DNA of 64,000 bases. Source: an uncultured Chitinophagaceae bacterium (lineage in GTDB: Bacteria > Bacteroidota > Bacteroidia > Chitinophagales > Chitinophagaceae). Every line of letters begins with the position of its first letter. The first letter of the stretch is position 1. The position numbers were made by a program, and so were the translations under genes. Of the stretch, positions 20,656-39,757 are shown piece by piece. Location: positions 22,100 to 86,099 of the forward strand of contig CAXSDW010000003.1 of assembly GCA_964236235.1 (NCBI GenBank), in the 5' to 3' direction. The notes beneath the pieces were generated by a model, which did no database searches, was not told the origin of the DNA, and saw nothing but the letters and a program-made list of their open reading frames with translations.

Positions 20656-21537
20656 TTAATCCCATTCTTTTTCTTCCAACAATTGTTGCTTAGCCACCCT
20701 GGCACAAATAAAGATGGAAATTTCATATAAGAGTATTAACGGAATAGCTACAATAGTTTGACTGGTCCAATCTGGAGAAGGTGTAATAACGGCAGCGACT
20801 ATTAAAATTACTACATAAGCATATTTACGGTAAGTTCTTAAGAACTGCGGAGATATAATTCCTATTTTAGAAAGTATATAAGCCATCACAGGAAGCTCAA
20901 ATGCAATACCACAGCCAATTATAATATTCACCAGTGTATCAATATAATCTTCCAGGCTGGGCAAATATGTTTGAGCGCCTACTGTGCCTAATTTAAATGA
21001 GGCTAAAAAATTAAATGTAAAAGGCGCTAATAAGTAATACCCGAATGCCCCACCTGTAAAAAAACAAAGCGAAACCCAGCCAATACTGCCTCTTGCGTAC
21101 TTTAATTCTTTGGAAGATAATGCCGGCTTAACGAACCGCCATAATTCCCAAAATAGATAAGGAAATGCAATAATCAATCCGCCCATAAAACAAATATCAA
21201 TGGCAGAAGTGAAAGAGCCGCTAACAGTGTTTATCAGCAAAGAAATTTTAACGGGCGGCATGCAAAGTGTATCACCTAAATGAAGTGTATGCCCAAGGTT
21301 ACATAAAGCCCTGTAAGTTATAAAATCTTGCCGTGCCGGAGCATAAATTATGTGATCAAATATCCAATCTATAAATACAAATATTAATATTGCGGCAAGA
21401 ACCAGTGCAATTGCAGAGCGCACTATATGCCATCTTAAAACTTCAAGATGATCAATAAAGGACATCTCAGATTTCTCATCATCCCTTCCGCGGATCTTTT
21501 TAAAAAATGATTTTCGTTCTGCTGCTTCTACACTCAA
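20656..21537 (-). CDS. tatC: Twin-arginine translocase subunit TatC (start uncertain; TTG 21537 preferred over the track's 21612)
   Basis: MSFIDHLEVLRWHI, FWELWRFVKPAL, FELP, AAVITPSPD, PLILLYEISI. Confidence 0.93.
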   Translation of the reverse strand: MSVEAAERKSFFKKIRGRDDEKSEMSFIDHLEVLRWHIVRSAIALVLAAILIFVFIDWIFDHIIYAPARQDFITYRALCNLGHTLHLGDTLCMPPVKISLLINTVSGSFTSAIDICFMGGLIIAFPYLFWELWRFVKPALSSKELKYARGSIGWVSLCFFTGGAFGYYLLAPFTFNFLASFKLGTVGAQTYLPSLEDYIDTLVNIIIGCGIAFELPVMAYILSKIGIISPQFLRTYRKYAYVVILIVAAVITPSPDWTSQTIVAIPLILLYEISIFICARVAKQQLLEEKEWD

Positions 21538-21656
21538 GCTTTTAAAATTTTCGGTTATAAATACGTAAAGGTAATAATTAAGGTTTGATACATTAATCAA
21601 CTCAGTATTCAAATTATATTAATAGCGCTGAGTATGTAAAATACACAATCGTCCGC

Positions 21657-21687
21657 AAAAAGAAAGGCCCCTGTAGAAACAGGGGCC
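21657..21687 (-). terminator. Intrinsic terminator
   Basis: Perfect 9-bp GC-rich stem 21666-21674/21679-21687, 4-nt loop, U-tract on the minus strand. Confidence 0.85.
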
Positions 21688-21735
21688 GTTTACCAAAACT
21701 AACTGCTTATGAGAAAATTGACTTTTAAACTTATG
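21657..21735 (-). ncRNA. Candidate ~80-nt small RNA with sigma54-type promoter and intrinsic terminator
   Basis: TGGCATTTGTTTTGT at 21761-21747; core TTTTCTCATAAGCAGTTAGTTTTGG; hairpin GGCCCCTGT-ttct-ACAGGGGCC followed by TTTCTTTTT. Confidence 0.5.
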
Positions 21736-21746
21736 CTTTATACTTT

Positions 21747-21761
21747 ACAAAACAAATGCCA
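21747..21761 (-). promoter_or_regulatory. sigma54 -24/-12-like element
   Basis: TGGCA-TTTGTT-TTGT against consensus TGGCA-N6-TTGC. Confidence 0.55.
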
Positions 21762-21820
21762 AAAAATTGGCTCACACGTTAAGGAAAAATAAACAATTTT
21801 AAAGTGCTAAAGCATGTAAA

Positions 21821-22885
21821 TTAATTTTGAGCAGTTAGCTTTTCTGCATTTTCAGCAAATTGTAATGCATCAATAAATTCCTGTATATCTCCATTTAATA
21901 CATTGTTTAAATTGTAAAGAGTGAGCCCGATACGATGATCGGTAACACGTCCCTGCGGAAAGTTATAGGTTCTTATTTTTGCCGACCTGTCTCCTGTGCT
22001 TACAAGGCTTTTCCTGTGACGGGAGATTTCTTCTTCCTGTTTACGAACAGTTTCCTCATACAACTTCGTCCGCAGCATCTGCATTGCTTTTTCCCTGTTA
22101 CCAAGTTGTGAGCGCTCTGTCTGGCATACTACAACAATCCCGGTAGGTATATGAGTTAAAAAAACTTTAGTTTCTACCTTATTTACATTTTGACCACCGG
22201 CACCGCCGCTACGGGCAGTTTCCATTTTTACGTCGCTTTCCTTTACTTCTACATCTACCTCATCAGCTTCCGGCATCACAGCTATAGTGGCGGCGCTGGT
22301 ATGTACACGTCCGCTGCCTTCTGTATCCGGAACACGTTGTACACGATGAACGCCGCTTTCAAATTTTAATGTGCCATAAACATCCTCGCCTGATACTTCA
22401 ATTTGAACTTCTTTATAACCACCAACTGTACCTTCGCTCTCACTCAGCAGCGCAGTTTTCCATCCCCTGTTTTCACAATATTTTAAATACATACGCATAA
22501 GATCGCCGGCAAAAAGCGATGCTTCGTCGCCACCGGTACCTGCTCTTATTTCCAAGATACAATTTCTTTCATCCTGCGGATCTTTTGGTATCAGCATAGA
22601 CCTGAGCTTCCTTTCCAACTCTTCTTTTGACAGTTGCAACCCGGGCAATTCTTCTTTTGCCATCTCTCTCATTTCGTTATCATCACTATTTAAAACCTCT
22701 CTGTTAAAAGCTATATCATCCAGAATTTTAGCGTATTGATTCTTTACATTTACAATCTTTTCCAGGCTGCGGTATTCTTTACTTAATTGAGTATATTTTT
22801 TATTATCCGATACAATTTCAGGATTAGATAATGCAATACCTAACTCATCAAAGCGGGCGTTTATAGAATCCAGTTTATCTAACAT
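21821..22885 (-). CDS. prfA: Peptide chain release factor 1
   Basis: [23 protein letters not shown] (PxT), [23 protein letters not shown]. Confidence 0.97.
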
Positions 22886-33518: not shown

Positions 33519-33694
33519 AATTATAAAGCATAAGCAGTTAGTATTTTTGATTATATCTCTCCTTTAAGTTAGTCCACCTAAGCTGGTATTTATTTATGAT
33601 TTAACTTTTCAGCGTTACTTCATAAGATATTTTAGGCGTAACTATACATTAACCTGTTATGTGTGGCTTAATTGATTATTGATATAATTAAAGT

Positions 33695-35104
33695 ATGCTA
33701 ACTAATATAGTAGATAAAATTGCGGATAGAGTAAGGTGGAGATATCTTATTGCATTTATTCTTTTGCTTACTTCTTATGTACTTACTTTTTATACTACGC
33801 AAAGATTATTAGACCAGGCTAAATTAGTTAATCACACTAATAGTGTTTTAAATAATCTTGATTTACTGATCTCTACCGTAAAGGATGCTGACTTTTCCTT
33901 TGGAGAGTATGTTATTGCAAAAGATGAACGGTTTTTAGATGCTTATAAAAGCAGCGAATCAACCATAGATTCACTTTTTAAAGCGCTTGAAAACCTTGTA
34001 ACTGATAATAAGTTACAAGTTAAACGGCTTGATACTCTTCATCTCTTAATACAACAAAAATATGCCCTTGTATCAACAGCTCATTCGCTTTTTAGAGAGA
34101 ATAATTACCAGGTAACAGACGCATTAAAAATTACCAGTTATAGCAGCAAACATAAGATGGATGAAATACGCCATTTAATGTTGAAAATGCAAAATGAAGA
34201 AAATGTTTTGATGTTAAAAAGATCAGGCAGGCTTTCATCATTCTCTGATTTTATTAAAACAATTAATATTGCTTCTCTTATCGTTGCGATACTATTAACT
34301 TTTTATTCCATCATAACTTTTACCAAGGAAAACAGGGCAAAAAAAGAAGCCGATTATAACGCAAAAGAATTTAGAAGACAACTTGAATTACGCATTAAAG
34401 AATTAGATGCTTTAAATAAAGAATTATTAGAATTAAAAAGCATAGAAAAATTTGCCGTTACCGGAAGAATCTCCAGAACTATTGCTCATGAAGTAAGAAA
34501 TCCTTTAACCAATATAAGCCTTGCAGCTGAGCAAATTCGCTCAGAAGTGCCGCCTAATCCGGAAATAGATTTATTGTTAGATATGATTACACGAAACGGT
34601 AACAGGATTAATCAACTGATAAGCGATCTTTTAAATTCAACAAAAATTACACAACTAAATTTTTCAAAAGTTTCTTTAAATGATTTGTTGGATGCAAGCC
34701 TGGAATTTGCCCAGGACAGGATTGAATTAAAAGGAATTAAGGTAATTAAAAATTATACGCCTGATCTATGCGATATATTAGCTGATACTGAAAAATTAAA
34801 AATCGCTTTCTTAAATATCATCGTTAATGCAATTGAGGCAATGGAAGCTAATGATGGAATTCTTCTAATAAAAACTGCACATAAAGACGGACGCTGTGTT
34901 GCCGCCATCACTGATAACGGCAGGGGCATGAGTAAAGAACATCTTTCAAAACTATTTGAGCCCTATTTTACCACAAAAGAAAATGGAACCGGGCTTGGTC
35001 TTGCCCATACGCAAAATATTATTATTGGCCACAAAGCCAATATACAGGTTGAAAGTGAAATCAGCAAAGGCACCACTTTTACAATCACATTAAATTACGG
35101 GTAA
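33695..35104 (+). CDS. CHASE3-type NtrB-like sensor histidine kinase
   Basis: Two TMs around a V.HT..VL..L..L periplasmic domain; IAHEVRNPL, NIIVNAIEA, DNGRGM, FEPYFTTKE.GTGLGL. Confidence 0.9.
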   Translation: MLTNIVDKIADRVRWRYLIAFILLLTSYVLTFYTTQRLLDQAKLVNHTNSVLNNLDLLISTVKDADFSFGEYVIAKDERFLDAYKSSESTIDSLFKALENLVTDNKLQVKRLDTLHLLIQQKYALVSTAHSLFRENNYQVTDALKITSYSSKHKMDEIRHLMLKMQNEENVLMLKRSGRLSSFSDFIKTINIASLIVAILLTFYSIITFTKENRAKKEADYNAKEFRRQLELRIKELDALNKELLELKSIEKFAVTGRISRTIAHEVRNPLTNISLAAEQIRSEVPPNPEIDLLLDMITRNGNRINQLISDLLNSTKITQLNFSKVSLNDLLDASLEFAQDRIELKGIKVIKNYTPDLCDILADTEKLKIAFLNIIVNAIEAMEANDGILLIKTAHKDGRCVAAITDNGRGMSKEHLSKLFEPYFTTKENGTGLGLAHTQNIIIGHKANIQVESEISKGTTFTITLNYG

Positions 35105-36250: not shown

Positions 36251-36262
36251 ATATATAACATT

Positions 36263-36289
36263 AAAAAGCCCTCATGATATGAGGGCTTT
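36263..36289 (-). terminator. Intrinsic terminator
   Basis: AAAGCCCTCAT-GAT-ATGAGGGCTTT inverted repeat with a U5 tract on the minus strand. Confidence 0.75.
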
Positions 36290-36525
36290 AAAGCTAATTT
36301 AGAAAAGAAAAATTGTAAAATATAATATCAGTTATTTACCATTTTACAATTTCAGTTTTTGTAACAAGATTAATTTGCAATTGTCTTAATCATCATTTTT
36401 TTCCTATTCTTGCCTTAACTTGTAATCTAATAAATCATATTCTTTATTGCCTTCTTTTGCCTGAAAATCTATTTACATAGAATTCATAACTATAAAGACA
36501 ATTGATGAAGAGATATTTAAAAGCA

Positions 36526-38347: not shown

Positions 38348-39757
38348 ATGAAAAAAAGAATTCTTATTATTGATGATGATCTTGACATGTGCCTTCTGCT
38401 TGGCAGGTTTCTTATAAAAAAAGGATACGAAGCTGATTCAGCGCATAGTGCAGCAAAAGGAATTGCTAAATTTTTTGAAGGAAATTATGATATTGTGTTG
38501 TGTGATTACCGTCTTGGCGATAAAGACGGCAGAGATGTATTACAAAAGATAAAAGAAATAAAGCCTCAAACGATAGTTATAATTATTACCGGATATTCCG
38601 ATATCAAAACTGCTGTGGATGTAATTAAGCTTGGCGCTTTTGATTATATAACCAAGCCGCTAATTCCGGATGAAGTGGTTAATGTAATTGAAAATGCGTT
38701 ATCAAAATCTTCAGATAATAAATTACCGGATATTCAAACACCTGAAATAAAAGTAAAAAAGCCTTATGTTGTTTCTGCCGACCAGGAATTTTTAGTAGGC
38801 CAGGATGGAGAAACAGCTCACTTATATAAGCAAATAGAAATTGTTGCTTCTACTAATTACAGTATAATATTATACGGTGAAAGCGGTACTGGTAAAGAAT
38901 TAATTGCCAAAACGATTCATGAATACAGCAACAGGAAAAACATGCCCTTTATTGCAATAGATTGTGGAACTCTTTCAAAGGAACTTGCGGGAAGTGAATT
39001 ATTTGGCCATGTAAAAGGAAGTTTTACAGGAGCAATAATTGATAAAGAGGGGCACTTTGAATTGGCTAACGGAGGTACACTTTTTTTAGATGAGGTTACT
39101 AATCTTTCTTACGAAATACAGGCAGCATTATTAAGAGTGATACAGGAAAGAAAATTTAAAAGAGTAGGCGGCACTAAAGAAATGGATGTAGATATAAGGA
39201 TCATTGTAGCATCTAATGAGAATCTGCAGGACGCTTACAGAAAAGGAAAATTTCGTGAAGATCTTTATCACAGGTTTAATGAATTTTCAATTAACCTGCC
39301 ACCTTTAAGAAACCGTAAAATAGACATTCCGTTATTTGCTGATTTCTTTCTTGATAAAACCAATAAAGAATTAGGTAAACATGTTGAAGGCTACGAGGAT
39401 AATGTGATGGAAATGTTTTTAAATTATAGCTGGCCGGGGAATCTCAGGGAATTCAGGAACGTGGTTCGCAGAGCCGTGCTGCTAACGCCTTCTGGTAAAA
39501 TAAGCGCTAAGGTATTGCCGTGGGAAATTGCTAATTCTTATCTTCATCAGCCTTATGTTGAAAATAATGTGCATCAGGAAAATAATGTTGTAATCCCCAA
39601 AGATCTGGATCTGAAAGATGCAGCTGCAAAAGCTGAATACGATACTATAATGAACGTTTTAAAAGACGTTAATTTTAATAAAACCAAAGCAGCCGAGATT
39701 CTTAAGATAGATAGAAAAACGTTGTATAATAAAATTAAAGTATATCAATCTTTGTAG
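38348..39757 (+). CDS. NtrC-family sigma54-dependent response regulator (bEBP)
   Basis: Receiver LCDYRL; Walker A GESGTGKE; GSFTGA; Walker B TLFLDE; FREDLYHR; WPGNLRE; Fis-type HTH NKTKAAEILKIDRKTLYNK. Confidence 0.95.
   Translation: MKKRILIIDDDLDMCLLLGRFLIKKGYEADSAHSAAKGIAKFFEGNYDIVLCDYRLGDKDGRDVLQKIKEIKPQTIVIIITGYSDIKTAVDVIKLGAFDYITKPLIPDEVVNVIENALSKSSDNKLPDIQTPEIKVKKPYVVSADQEFLVGQDGETAHLYKQIEIVASTNYSIILYGESGTGKELIAKTIHEYSNRKNMPFIAIDCGTLSKELAGSELFGHVKGSFTGAIIDKEGHFELANGGTLFLDEVTNLSYEIQAALLRVIQERKFKRVGGTKEMDVDIRIIVASNENLQDAYRKGKFREDLYHRFNEFSINLPPLRNRKIDIPLFADFFLDKTNKELGKHVEGYEDNVMEMFLNYSWPGNLREFRNVVRRAVLLTPSGKISAKVLPWEIANSYLHQPYVENNVHQENNVVIPKDLDLKDAAAKAEYDTIMNVLKDVNFNKTKAAEILKIDRKTLYNKIKVYQSL

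Follow-up and report, generated by a model that had tools for sequence, protein, structure and literature searches.

A candidate sigma54-dependent small RNA gene with an invariant core, conserved downstream of prfA in Chitinophagaceae

The spacer between the release factor gene prfA and the protein export gene tatC raises a simple question in the 64,000-nt stretch of DNA analysed here (64 kb, hereafter the window): does the hairpin that lies in it merely end the prfA transcript, or does it close an RNA gene with a promoter of its own? An earlier note on this DNA had described a promoter-like element, an unstructured stretch, a 9-bp hairpin and a U-tract on the minus strand with no open reading frame (ORF), and had proposed a sigma54-dependent small RNA (sRNA) that might block initiation regions in trans. 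To evaluate this proposal, the spacer was compared with its counterparts in related genomes, metagenomes and metatranscriptomes. The account that we favour, with a probability of roughly 55%, is an independent sRNA gene of about 78 nt, transcribed in this lineage by sigma54 RNA polymerase and acting by trans base pairing through an invariant segment. Its parts differ in strength and are graded separately below.

The four minus-strand features of the earlier note were all recovered where it had placed them, and Table 1 gives the full layout. An 80-nt RNA spanning positions 21735-21656 folds with -23.1 kcal/mol (z = -4.4), nearly all of this energy residing in the terminator hairpin; the core is predicted to be largely unpaired, in the minimum free energy as well as in the centroid fold. 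The claim that the strand lacks an ORF also stands, with no ORF of 30 aa or more on either strand of positions 21613-21820 and, as described below, no conserved ORF in relatives. A tRNA and tmRNA scan of the window found no gene. A weak covariance-model match elsewhere in the window, at 36251-36335 on the minus strand, turned out to be merely another terminator and was discarded.

Table 1. Positions of the candidate sRNA gene, its neighbours and a putative activator gene in the window
Feature	Position	Strand	Remarks
prfA (release factor 1)	21821-22885	minus	Upstream neighbour; TIGR00019, 508.7 bits
TTAACG box	21782-21777	minus	First base 21 nt ahead of the T in TGGCA; candidate binding site for an activator or co-regulator
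sigma54-type -24/-12 element, TGGCAT-N5-TTGT (TGGCATTTGTTTTGT)	21761-21747	minus	GG at 21760-21759; -12 base is T at 21747
Predicted transcription start	21733-21736	minus	A at 21734 is +13 from the -12 base; suggested by purine enrichment
Variable 5' segment of the RNA	21721-21734	minus	Alignment columns poorly conserved, length varies
AAAGUCAA	within 21721-21734	minus	Apparent remnant of the second AAGCAGUCAA module of Puia/Niastella-type homologues
Unpaired conserved stretch	21720-21688	minus	
TTTTCTCATAAGCAGTTAGTTTTGG	21717-21693	minus	Inside the A/U-rich stretch
Invariant 24-nt core TTCTCATAAGCAGTTAGTTTTGGT	21715-21692	minus	Predicted to be mostly unpaired; includes CAU, an anti-start codon
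Intrinsic terminator stem-loop, GGCCCCTGT-TTCT-ACAGGGGCC	21687-21666	minus	9 bp, 7 of them G-C; loop UUCU (terminator scan)
U-tract TTTCTTTTT	21665-21657	minus	Directly after the hairpin; predicted 3' end
tatC	20656-21465	minus	Downstream neighbour; TIGR00945, 160 bits
NtrC-type sigma54 activator	38348-39757		REC, Sigma54_activat (PF00158, 216 bits) and HTH_8 domains

The PrfA protein of the window finds its best matches, at 86-87% amino acid identity, in metagenome-assembled genomes labelled Chitinophagaceae, Hanamia and Ginsengibacter, and the organism is therefore taken to be a member of the Chitinophagaceae. A near-exact match to the DNA of the window was seen in one lichen metagenome run only, and no RNA run of the organism was encountered. 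Conservation was examined in a genome set of 80 Chitinophagaceae prfA loci together with the window. A fuzzy search located the core in 52 of the 80 loci, and a covariance model built from 51 copies recovered one strong copy each in 69 of them and in the window, with scores of 66-106 bits. The isolates that carry the element include Puia dinghuensis CGMCC 1.15448, Ferruginibacter paludis CECT 8366, Niastella sp. OAS944 and Terrimonas pollutisoli H1YJ31. The 24 contiguous alignment columns of the core are invariant across 51 sequences, and 69 of the 70 genome-set copies have the 24-mer unchanged, in a setting where the rest of the spacer downstream of prfA cannot be aligned and the PrfA proteins themselves are only 78-87% identical. 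A metagenome scan with the core returned at least 120 stretches. Two or three tandem copies (L139, L153, L162 and L176) or a second, distant copy (L087) occur in some genomes. The suggestion in the earlier note that this core recurs in related genomes was thus borne out by the 69 prfA loci and the metagenome copies. At the level of sequence, the element is real and is conserved across Chitinophagaceae of soil and water.

The hairpin is under a different kind of constraint from the core. Compensatory changes occur in six of its nine pairs, and 99.6% of the alignment cells are paired; none of 500 shuffles equalled the observed covariation and no slid register came close. The stem is found as CCCCTG/CAGGGG, CCCCGA/TCGGGG, CCTTTG/CAAAGG, ACCCTG/CAGGGT and in other variants, and the loop is kept as UUCU or UUCC although the stem varies. 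The 5' part of the RNA differs between lineages. For example, Puia/Niastella-type RNAs (L012, L016, L021, L031, L039 and others) carry a second 5' module, AAAGCAGUCAA, which is similar to UAAGCAGUUAG of the core, so that each RNA has two AAGCAGU(C/U)A modules, and one homologue (L100) has two near-identical UUCUCAUAAGCAGU modules.

Is the conserved unit a gene in its own right, or an appendage of its neighbours? In 68 of the 70 genome-set loci it lies downstream of prfA on the same strand. Promoter, core and terminator are inverted together relative to prfA at one locus of the genome set (L045) and one of the metagenome set (L165), and at four loci (L015, L041, L056 and L080) the upstream gene is set off from the promoter motif by a separate terminator hairpin. 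These inversions and upstream terminators indicate that the unit is an independent gene and more than a prfA terminator; as far as locus layout is concerned, they contradict the converse reading, raised in the earlier note, that the hairpin serves only to end prfA. Another gene separates prfA from the element in 17 loci, and tatC is the next gene downstream in only about ten, the place being taken elsewhere by an unrelated gene that is mostly convergent. Two loci (L020 and L047) have a prfA-tatC pair with a short spacer from which the element is absent. The discrete promoter-RNA-terminator architecture that had been proposed is hence independent of both prfA and tatC.

A cis-acting leader or attenuator of tatC, or a plain prfA terminator beside a chance promoter-like match, would agree with the same-strand tatC gene next downstream in the window and in about nine relatives, and with the fact that the -24/-12 match of the window, taken alone, is at chance level. 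Against this stand the two loci in which tatC directly follows prfA without the element, the unrelated and convergent next gene at most loci, and an invariant 24-nt core with a conserved promoter, a combination that cannot be due to chance. The tatC leader was accordingly rejected, the downstream gene being neither conserved nor usually in the same direction, and we give this pair of explanations a close to negligible probability. A coding gene was likewise rejected. The antisense ORF that begins at the ATG complementary to the CAU of the core varies from 3 to 138 aa (median 14) in the 70 copies, 62 of them have no sense-strand ORF spanning the core, and no ORF on either strand is conserved among the 70. 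Taken together, the inversions, the upstream terminators, the varying neighbours and the lack of a conserved ORF rule out a leader of tatC, a mere terminator of prfA and a gene for a small protein, and positions 21734-21657 of the minus strand very probably represent an independent sRNA gene of about 78 nt.

A more serious challenge to this assignment is that core and hairpin may act mainly as a 3'UTR element of the upstream gene, either processed or functioning in cis, with the -24/-12 motif secondary or inactive. The same-strand position downstream of prfA in nearly all genome-set loci is what such an element would display. Between prfA and the element of the window (21820-21762), the terminator scan yielded no strong separate terminator and only a 5-bp hairpin that overlaps the -24 element, so prfA transcription may read through into the sRNA terminator. 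Furthermore, eight metagenome loci have a conserved small basic ORF whose stop codon lies 7-23 nt ahead of the first base of the core, with no promoter between them, which is a 3'UTR arrangement. Neither this small ORF, which one metagenome lineage has ahead of the core, nor the genes flanking the element gave an informative Pfam or NCBIfam match.

The metatranscriptome assemblies bear on the same point. Sequence words of the core occur in at least 18 soil and rhizosphere assemblies, and words of one homologue (L057) in at least 18 aquatic, river, wastewater and other assemblies; overall, words from the invariant region were found in dozens of assemblies from soil, rhizosphere, ice, river, wastewater and hot springs. 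Contigs from 11 of 12 metatranscriptome runs align to the element, and most of them cross the promoter or pass the terminator, joining upstream sequence to the core. Because they extend across the promoter, read-through from upstream or carry-over of DNA is possible. Three contigs end within 2 nt of position 21657, in the U-tract, which hints weakly at the 3' end of the RNA and would suit a processed 3'UTR too, and some contigs break inside the hairpin. The element sequence is thus present in RNA-derived assemblies, in a form that agrees both with termination at the hairpin and with transcription running in from the upstream gene.

What weighs against a 3'UTR element are the inversions that carry the promoter along, the separate upstream terminators, and the fact that most metagenome core loci, among the matches listed, have no prfA on the sequenced stretch. 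It would also leave a -24/-12 element with exact spacing unexplained. It should be noted that the two modes can coexist, as in 3'UTR-derived sRNAs that have their own promoter. We consider a predominantly 3'UTR function distinctly unlikely and return to the independent gene, whose promoter can be judged by comparison.

In the window itself the promoter is inconspicuous. TGGCAY-N5-TTG occurs once, against 1.96 occurrences expected, and the version ending in TTGC is absent. The GG and the 10-bp spacing agree with the consensus, and the -12 base is T where the consensus has C. Since this match is at chance level, it is no evidence by itself and gains significance only through comparison with relatives. 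In a first pass, TGGCAY-N5-TTG was found 30-63 nt upstream of the core in 47 of 53 copies. Among the 70 genome-set copies, 65 have a -24/-12 element with at most three mismatches from TGGCAC-N5-TTGC, and the N5 spacing is kept without exception; 15 of these elements are perfect and 27 deviate at one position, and TTGC is present in 41. Elsewhere, TGGCAY-N5-TTGC was encountered once in 587 kb on both strands. The -24/-12 element proposed in the earlier note is therefore kept with exact spacing in most homologues. The promoter of the window can be regarded as a deviant member of this set, since its clade has A, T or G at -12.

An alignment of 102 distinct promoters (consensus ttTa.a..tt..tTaAca-N16-TGGCA) has its information peaks at TGGCA and TTTGC. 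A purine is found at +13 from the -12 base in 86 of the 102 and at +14 in 81, and this peak, where a sigma54 start is expected, suggests transcription from near A21734 and hence an RNA of about 78 nt. A sigma54 system appears to be present in this organism, because an NtrC-type activator is encoded in the window (Table 1). Together, these features strongly imply a sigma54-type promoter. Most likely, sigma54 RNA polymerase would transcribe positions 21734-21657 of the minus strand from TGGCAT-N5-TTGT; this would need an enhancer-binding activator, possibly along with a factor at the conserved TTAAC box, and would stop at the Rho-independent terminator.

In 50 of 65 genome-set homologues a distance of 20-22 nt separates the TTAAC box from TGGCA downstream of it, and in the wider set 84 of 107 copies among the matches listed have the box 31-33 nt upstream of TTG. 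This recurrence points to a conserved DNA-binding regulator as its putative ligand. The promoters themselves fall into more than one class. Among the matches listed, 178 copies have enough upstream sequence, and these comprise 107 with TGGCAN-N5-TTG, 16 with TAnnTTTG (the Bacteroidota sigmaA type, for example GGCGTAACTTTG), 9 with a weak element and 46 with none; a few TAnnTTTG copies fit both readings. The TTAAC(A) box is common to both promoter classes, and a second TTAnA/TTAAC copy is often seen 11 or 21 nt further upstream. Judging from these motifs, sigma54 control is not universal, some lineages having a sigmaA-like promoter and others the core behind a small ORF.

The presence of the TTAAC box in both classes keeps alive another interpretation, in which the RNA gene is real and its promoter is used by a sigma70-family factor that recognizes TTAAC (at about -33) and TTTG (at about -7), with TGGCA as a regulator site. 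The 31-33 nt between TTAAC and TTG, seen in the TGGCA and TAnnTTTG classes alike, equals the -33/-7 spacing of Bacteroidota sigmaA, the box is retained in lineages without a -24/-12 element, and copies such as CGGCAGTAAATTTGC can be read either way, with the TAnnTTTG example given above fitting sigmaA only. Set against these points, no part of the promoter is more conserved than TGGCA, and most copies lack the TA of TAnnTTTG. Also on this side are the perfect copies of the sigma54 consensus, the invariable spacing and the purine peak at +13/+14, which fits a sigma54 start. Such a sigma70-family promoter strikes us as unlikely, and sigma54 control of the RNA in the clade of the window as probable.

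How the RNA might act is the least secure part of the account. An unpaired U/A-rich segment with a terminator behind it is how pairing sRNAs are usually built, and Bacteroidota generally initiate translation without Shine-Dalgarno pairing. The RNA would expose an invariant, largely unpaired segment of 24 to 33 nt, CAAUUUUCUCAUAAGCAGUUAGUUUUGGU, and base pairing in trans through this segment is its most likely mode of action. The CAU and its flanking U-rich bases would pair with initiation regions of the AUG-AGA-AAA type, so that initiation is blocked. Pairing of UUUUCUCAU with AUGAGAAAA is chemically sound.

Several searches for such targets were made. A duplex scan of start regions in the 64-kb window reached -19.0 kcal/mol at best, against a shuffled-seed median of -18.7, and a k-mer-seeded target scan of the window gave nothing above the shuffled-seed background. 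In related loci, perfect complements of 10-13 nt (UUAUGAGAAAAUU) lie at the start codons of ORFs of 155-1015 aa with signal-peptide-like MRK starts, their number being about what is expected by chance. Three individual candidates were discarded: a 14-nt match at 33529-33542 has the same sense as the RNA (p of about 0.03) and is not a target, an apparent 18-nt target in L139 is a degenerate tandem copy of the sRNA, and an 11-nt complement inside prfA, over the LEKIV codons, is confined to a few loci and reflects codon chance. The suggestion that the sRNA blocks initiation regions found no target support in the window, where nothing rose above the shuffled-seed background; the conserved core with its CAU is predicted to be unpaired. 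Trans base pairing at start codons is inferred, and we adopt start-codon occlusion as a working hypothesis, one held tentatively and with some doubt.

The same features leave room for a protein-binding role, especially the AAGCAGUYA repeat and the conserved terminator loop. Instead of pairing with mRNAs, the RNA might bind a protein, serving as decoy, sponge or cofactor, with recognition through the core, the AAGCAGUYA module or the UUCU loop. An invariance of 24 nt across genera and metagenome copies exceeds that of most seeds. The duplicated modules of the Puia/Niastella-type RNAs and of L100, the loop that stays constant while its stem covaries, and the background-level target scans would all agree with such a role. 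Indeed, the invariance, the duplicated module and the conserved loop exceed the needs of a simple seed, and a protein-binding RNA would fit them equally well. On the other side, no candidate protein is known, and the target search covered only 64 kb of the genome, so its negative result is weak. About 30 invariant nucleotides can also serve as a multi-target pairing region, as in the Qrr sRNAs, and the order of unpaired segment and terminator remains that of a pairing sRNA. Protein binding instead of mRNA pairing is in our view not a probable function, and trans base pairing is retained as the preferred one.

A bolder idea takes the segment CUCAUAA as its starting point. This segment lies within the invariant region and is, we presume, identical to the anticodon loop of methionine tRNAs. 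In combination with the AAGCAGUYA repeat and the conserved loop of the terminator, it might make the RNA, rather than an ordinary multi-target repressor, a phylum-specific regulator of translation initiation itself, one that engages AUG start regions generically or a component of the machinery for Shine-Dalgarno-independent initiation, and whose input has been rewired by lineage between sigma54, sigmaA and 3'UTR processing. We would like to emphasize that this idea is highly speculative and that we think it improbable.

Does the element belong to any described family? No gathering-level match was found in the 64-kb window with Rfam 15, which includes Qrr, GlmY/Z, CrcZ, Pxr, Flavo-1 and Bacteroid-type motifs. 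A permissive scan of positions 21400-21900 gave best scores of 10-22 bits against thresholds of 41-100, mostly as alignments to the terminator only. The earlier note had allowed for a known cis element from Rfam, and none was matched. A literature search for the core sequence found no paper, and none of the 9-mers of the core occurs in the sRNA tables of Flavobacterium psychrophilum (PMC9723704). Since Rfam 15, the literature and the F. psychrophilum RNAs all fail to offer a similar sequence, membership of any described family can be set aside. The element is a new, previously undescribed family of candidate sRNAs, set apart by its breadth, its invariant core and an apparent switching of promoter class between lineages, and it merits a new Rfam family.

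To our knowledge, sRNA regulation in Bacteroidota outside the gut Bacteroides is almost unexplored, and no sRNA family would have been shown before this one to extend over an entire bacterial family, here one abundant in soil, rhizosphere and freshwater. The element stands out by an unusually long invariant core, a recognizable input (sigma54 and the TTAAC box) and the occurrence of its sequence in RNA assemblies from many environments. It could offer a handle for defining a sigma54 stress or adaptation regulon in Chitinophagaceae, for understanding how sRNAs block initiation where there is no ribosome-binding site, and for following the evolutionary switching of sigma-factor class at the promoter of a conserved RNA gene.

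Comparison with known systems places the element among RNAs that resemble it in control or in role, and none of these matches it in sequence. As an analogy for the proposed role only, the envelope-stress sRNAs RybB, MicA and MicL of enterobacteria link a stress sigma factor to a short RNA that blocks the translation of mRNAs of exported proteins; they depend on another sigma factor (sigmaE) and have no homology to the element. GibS and MasB of Bacteroides thetaiotaomicron are trans-acting sRNAs of Bacteroidota whose pairing sites are at or close to start codons and which do without Hfq, a protein that Bacteroidota generally lack. Unlike the element, they have sigmaA promoters and unrelated sequences and are confined to gut Bacteroides. 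GlmY/GlmZ, CrcZ/CrcY, NrsZ and Pxr (Myxococcus) are likewise non-coding RNAs with a sigma54 promoter and an NtrC-family activator; they have no homology to the element, given the negative Rfam scan, and none of them is known from Bacteroidota. CrcZ illustrates that sigma54-dependent RNAs can be protein sponges with repeated motifs.

Within the phylum, F. psychrophilum has -24/-12 promoters with mapped starts in front of genes for chaperones, envelope functions and gliding, and also in front of three putative sRNAs; its sigma54 regulon covers chaperones and envelope stress, and TAnnTTTG is cited as the Bacteroidota sigmaA consensus (PMC9723704). These three RNAs, Rfp1, Rfp36 and Rfp45, share with the element the phylum and a -24/-12 (SM4) promoter before a non-coding transcript, and exemplify sigma54-driven small RNAs in Bacteroidota; they differ in their length of 202-348 nt and unrelated sequence, are not reported to be conserved beyond the genus and are functionally uncharacterised (PMC9723704). 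By function, the closest systems are Qrr and the other sigma54-dependent sRNAs. The Qrr sRNAs of Vibrionaceae (RF00378; sigma54 with LuxO) differ from the element in phylum, without a match in sequence or structure, and have four stem-loops in place of a terminator hairpin and at most a weak stem. They resemble it in their sigma54-type promoter, their Rho-independent terminator and their size (about 80-110 nt); in both, a long unpaired region is invariant and a genome can have a single copy or several.

A TTAAC(A) box is conserved upstream of the sRNA promoter in the window and in the homologous loci compared (L001-L200), where it precedes the TGGCA (-24) element at a fixed distance of 20-22 nt. 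A second TTAnA/TTAAC copy is often present 11 or 21 nt farther upstream, forming direct repeats. Because the box is conserved, and is retained even in lineages with a sigmaA-like core promoter, it suggests that the sRNA gene has a conserved DNA-binding regulator.

The core promoter itself differs among loci. In metagenome loci L100, L102, L114, L116 and L168, the sRNA is preceded by GGCGTAnCTTTG, a TAnnTTTG sigmaA-type -7 box, in place of TGGCAY-N5-TTGC. A one-base change in spacing separates these motifs, so a switch of promoter class between lineages seems to have occurred. The window encodes an NtrC-type sigma54 enhancer-binding response regulator, which is a candidate activator of the sRNA promoter, one among others in the genome.

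Coordinates of features at the sRNA gene and elsewhere
Feature	Sequence	Position	Strand	Remarks
TTAAC(A) box	window	21777-21782	-	
Hairpin GCCAA-TTTT-TTGGC	window	21758-21771	-	weak, 5 bp; T-rich tail follows
sRNA terminator loop UUCU/UUCC	window	21675-21678	-	
Core-like match	window	33529-33542	+	14 nt
CHASE3 histidine kinase gene	window	33695-35104		
NtrC-type response regulator	window	38348-39757	+	REC, AAA+, HTH_8 domains
Tandem sRNA gene copies	L139	388-488, 704-800, 943-1037		

The 5-bp hairpin and its tail overlap the -24 element. This hairpin is not conserved in L001; it could be a feeble prfA terminator or have arisen by chance. The loop of the sRNA terminator may have a function beyond termination, because UUCU/UUCC is kept in the window and its homologues while the stem covaries. 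The core has a same-sense partial copy in the window, CATAAGCAGTTAGT, in the intergenic region that precedes a CHASE3 histidine kinase gene. This is probably a chance match: one as long arises in 9 of 300 shuffles, no hairpin is found there, and the covariance model of the sRNA scores only 17.6 bits.

The surroundings of the sRNA gene also vary. Among the matches listed, in L081, L104, L117, L131, L146, L150, L190 and L192 a small basic ORF of 51-77 aa, conserved and carrying the motif KEDFVITEQEEREGGYFG, precedes the core, which begins 7-23 nt past the ORF's stop codon; this is the same sRNA in a 3'UTR arrangement. The ORF has no match in Pfam or NCBIfam. Loci differ from one another at synonymous third positions within it, which suggests that it is a true coding sequence. 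In 17 genomes (L007, L009, L013, L023 and 13 other loci), an extra gene lies between prfA and the sRNA gene, encoding a Gly/Gln-rich protein of about 205-213 aa that starts MLEELFNLVKG and has no Pfam match for its first 70 residues. The sRNA gene is itself present in two or three tandem copies on some contigs (L139, L153, L162, L176), and L087 carries a second, diverged copy at a distance of 5.5 kb.
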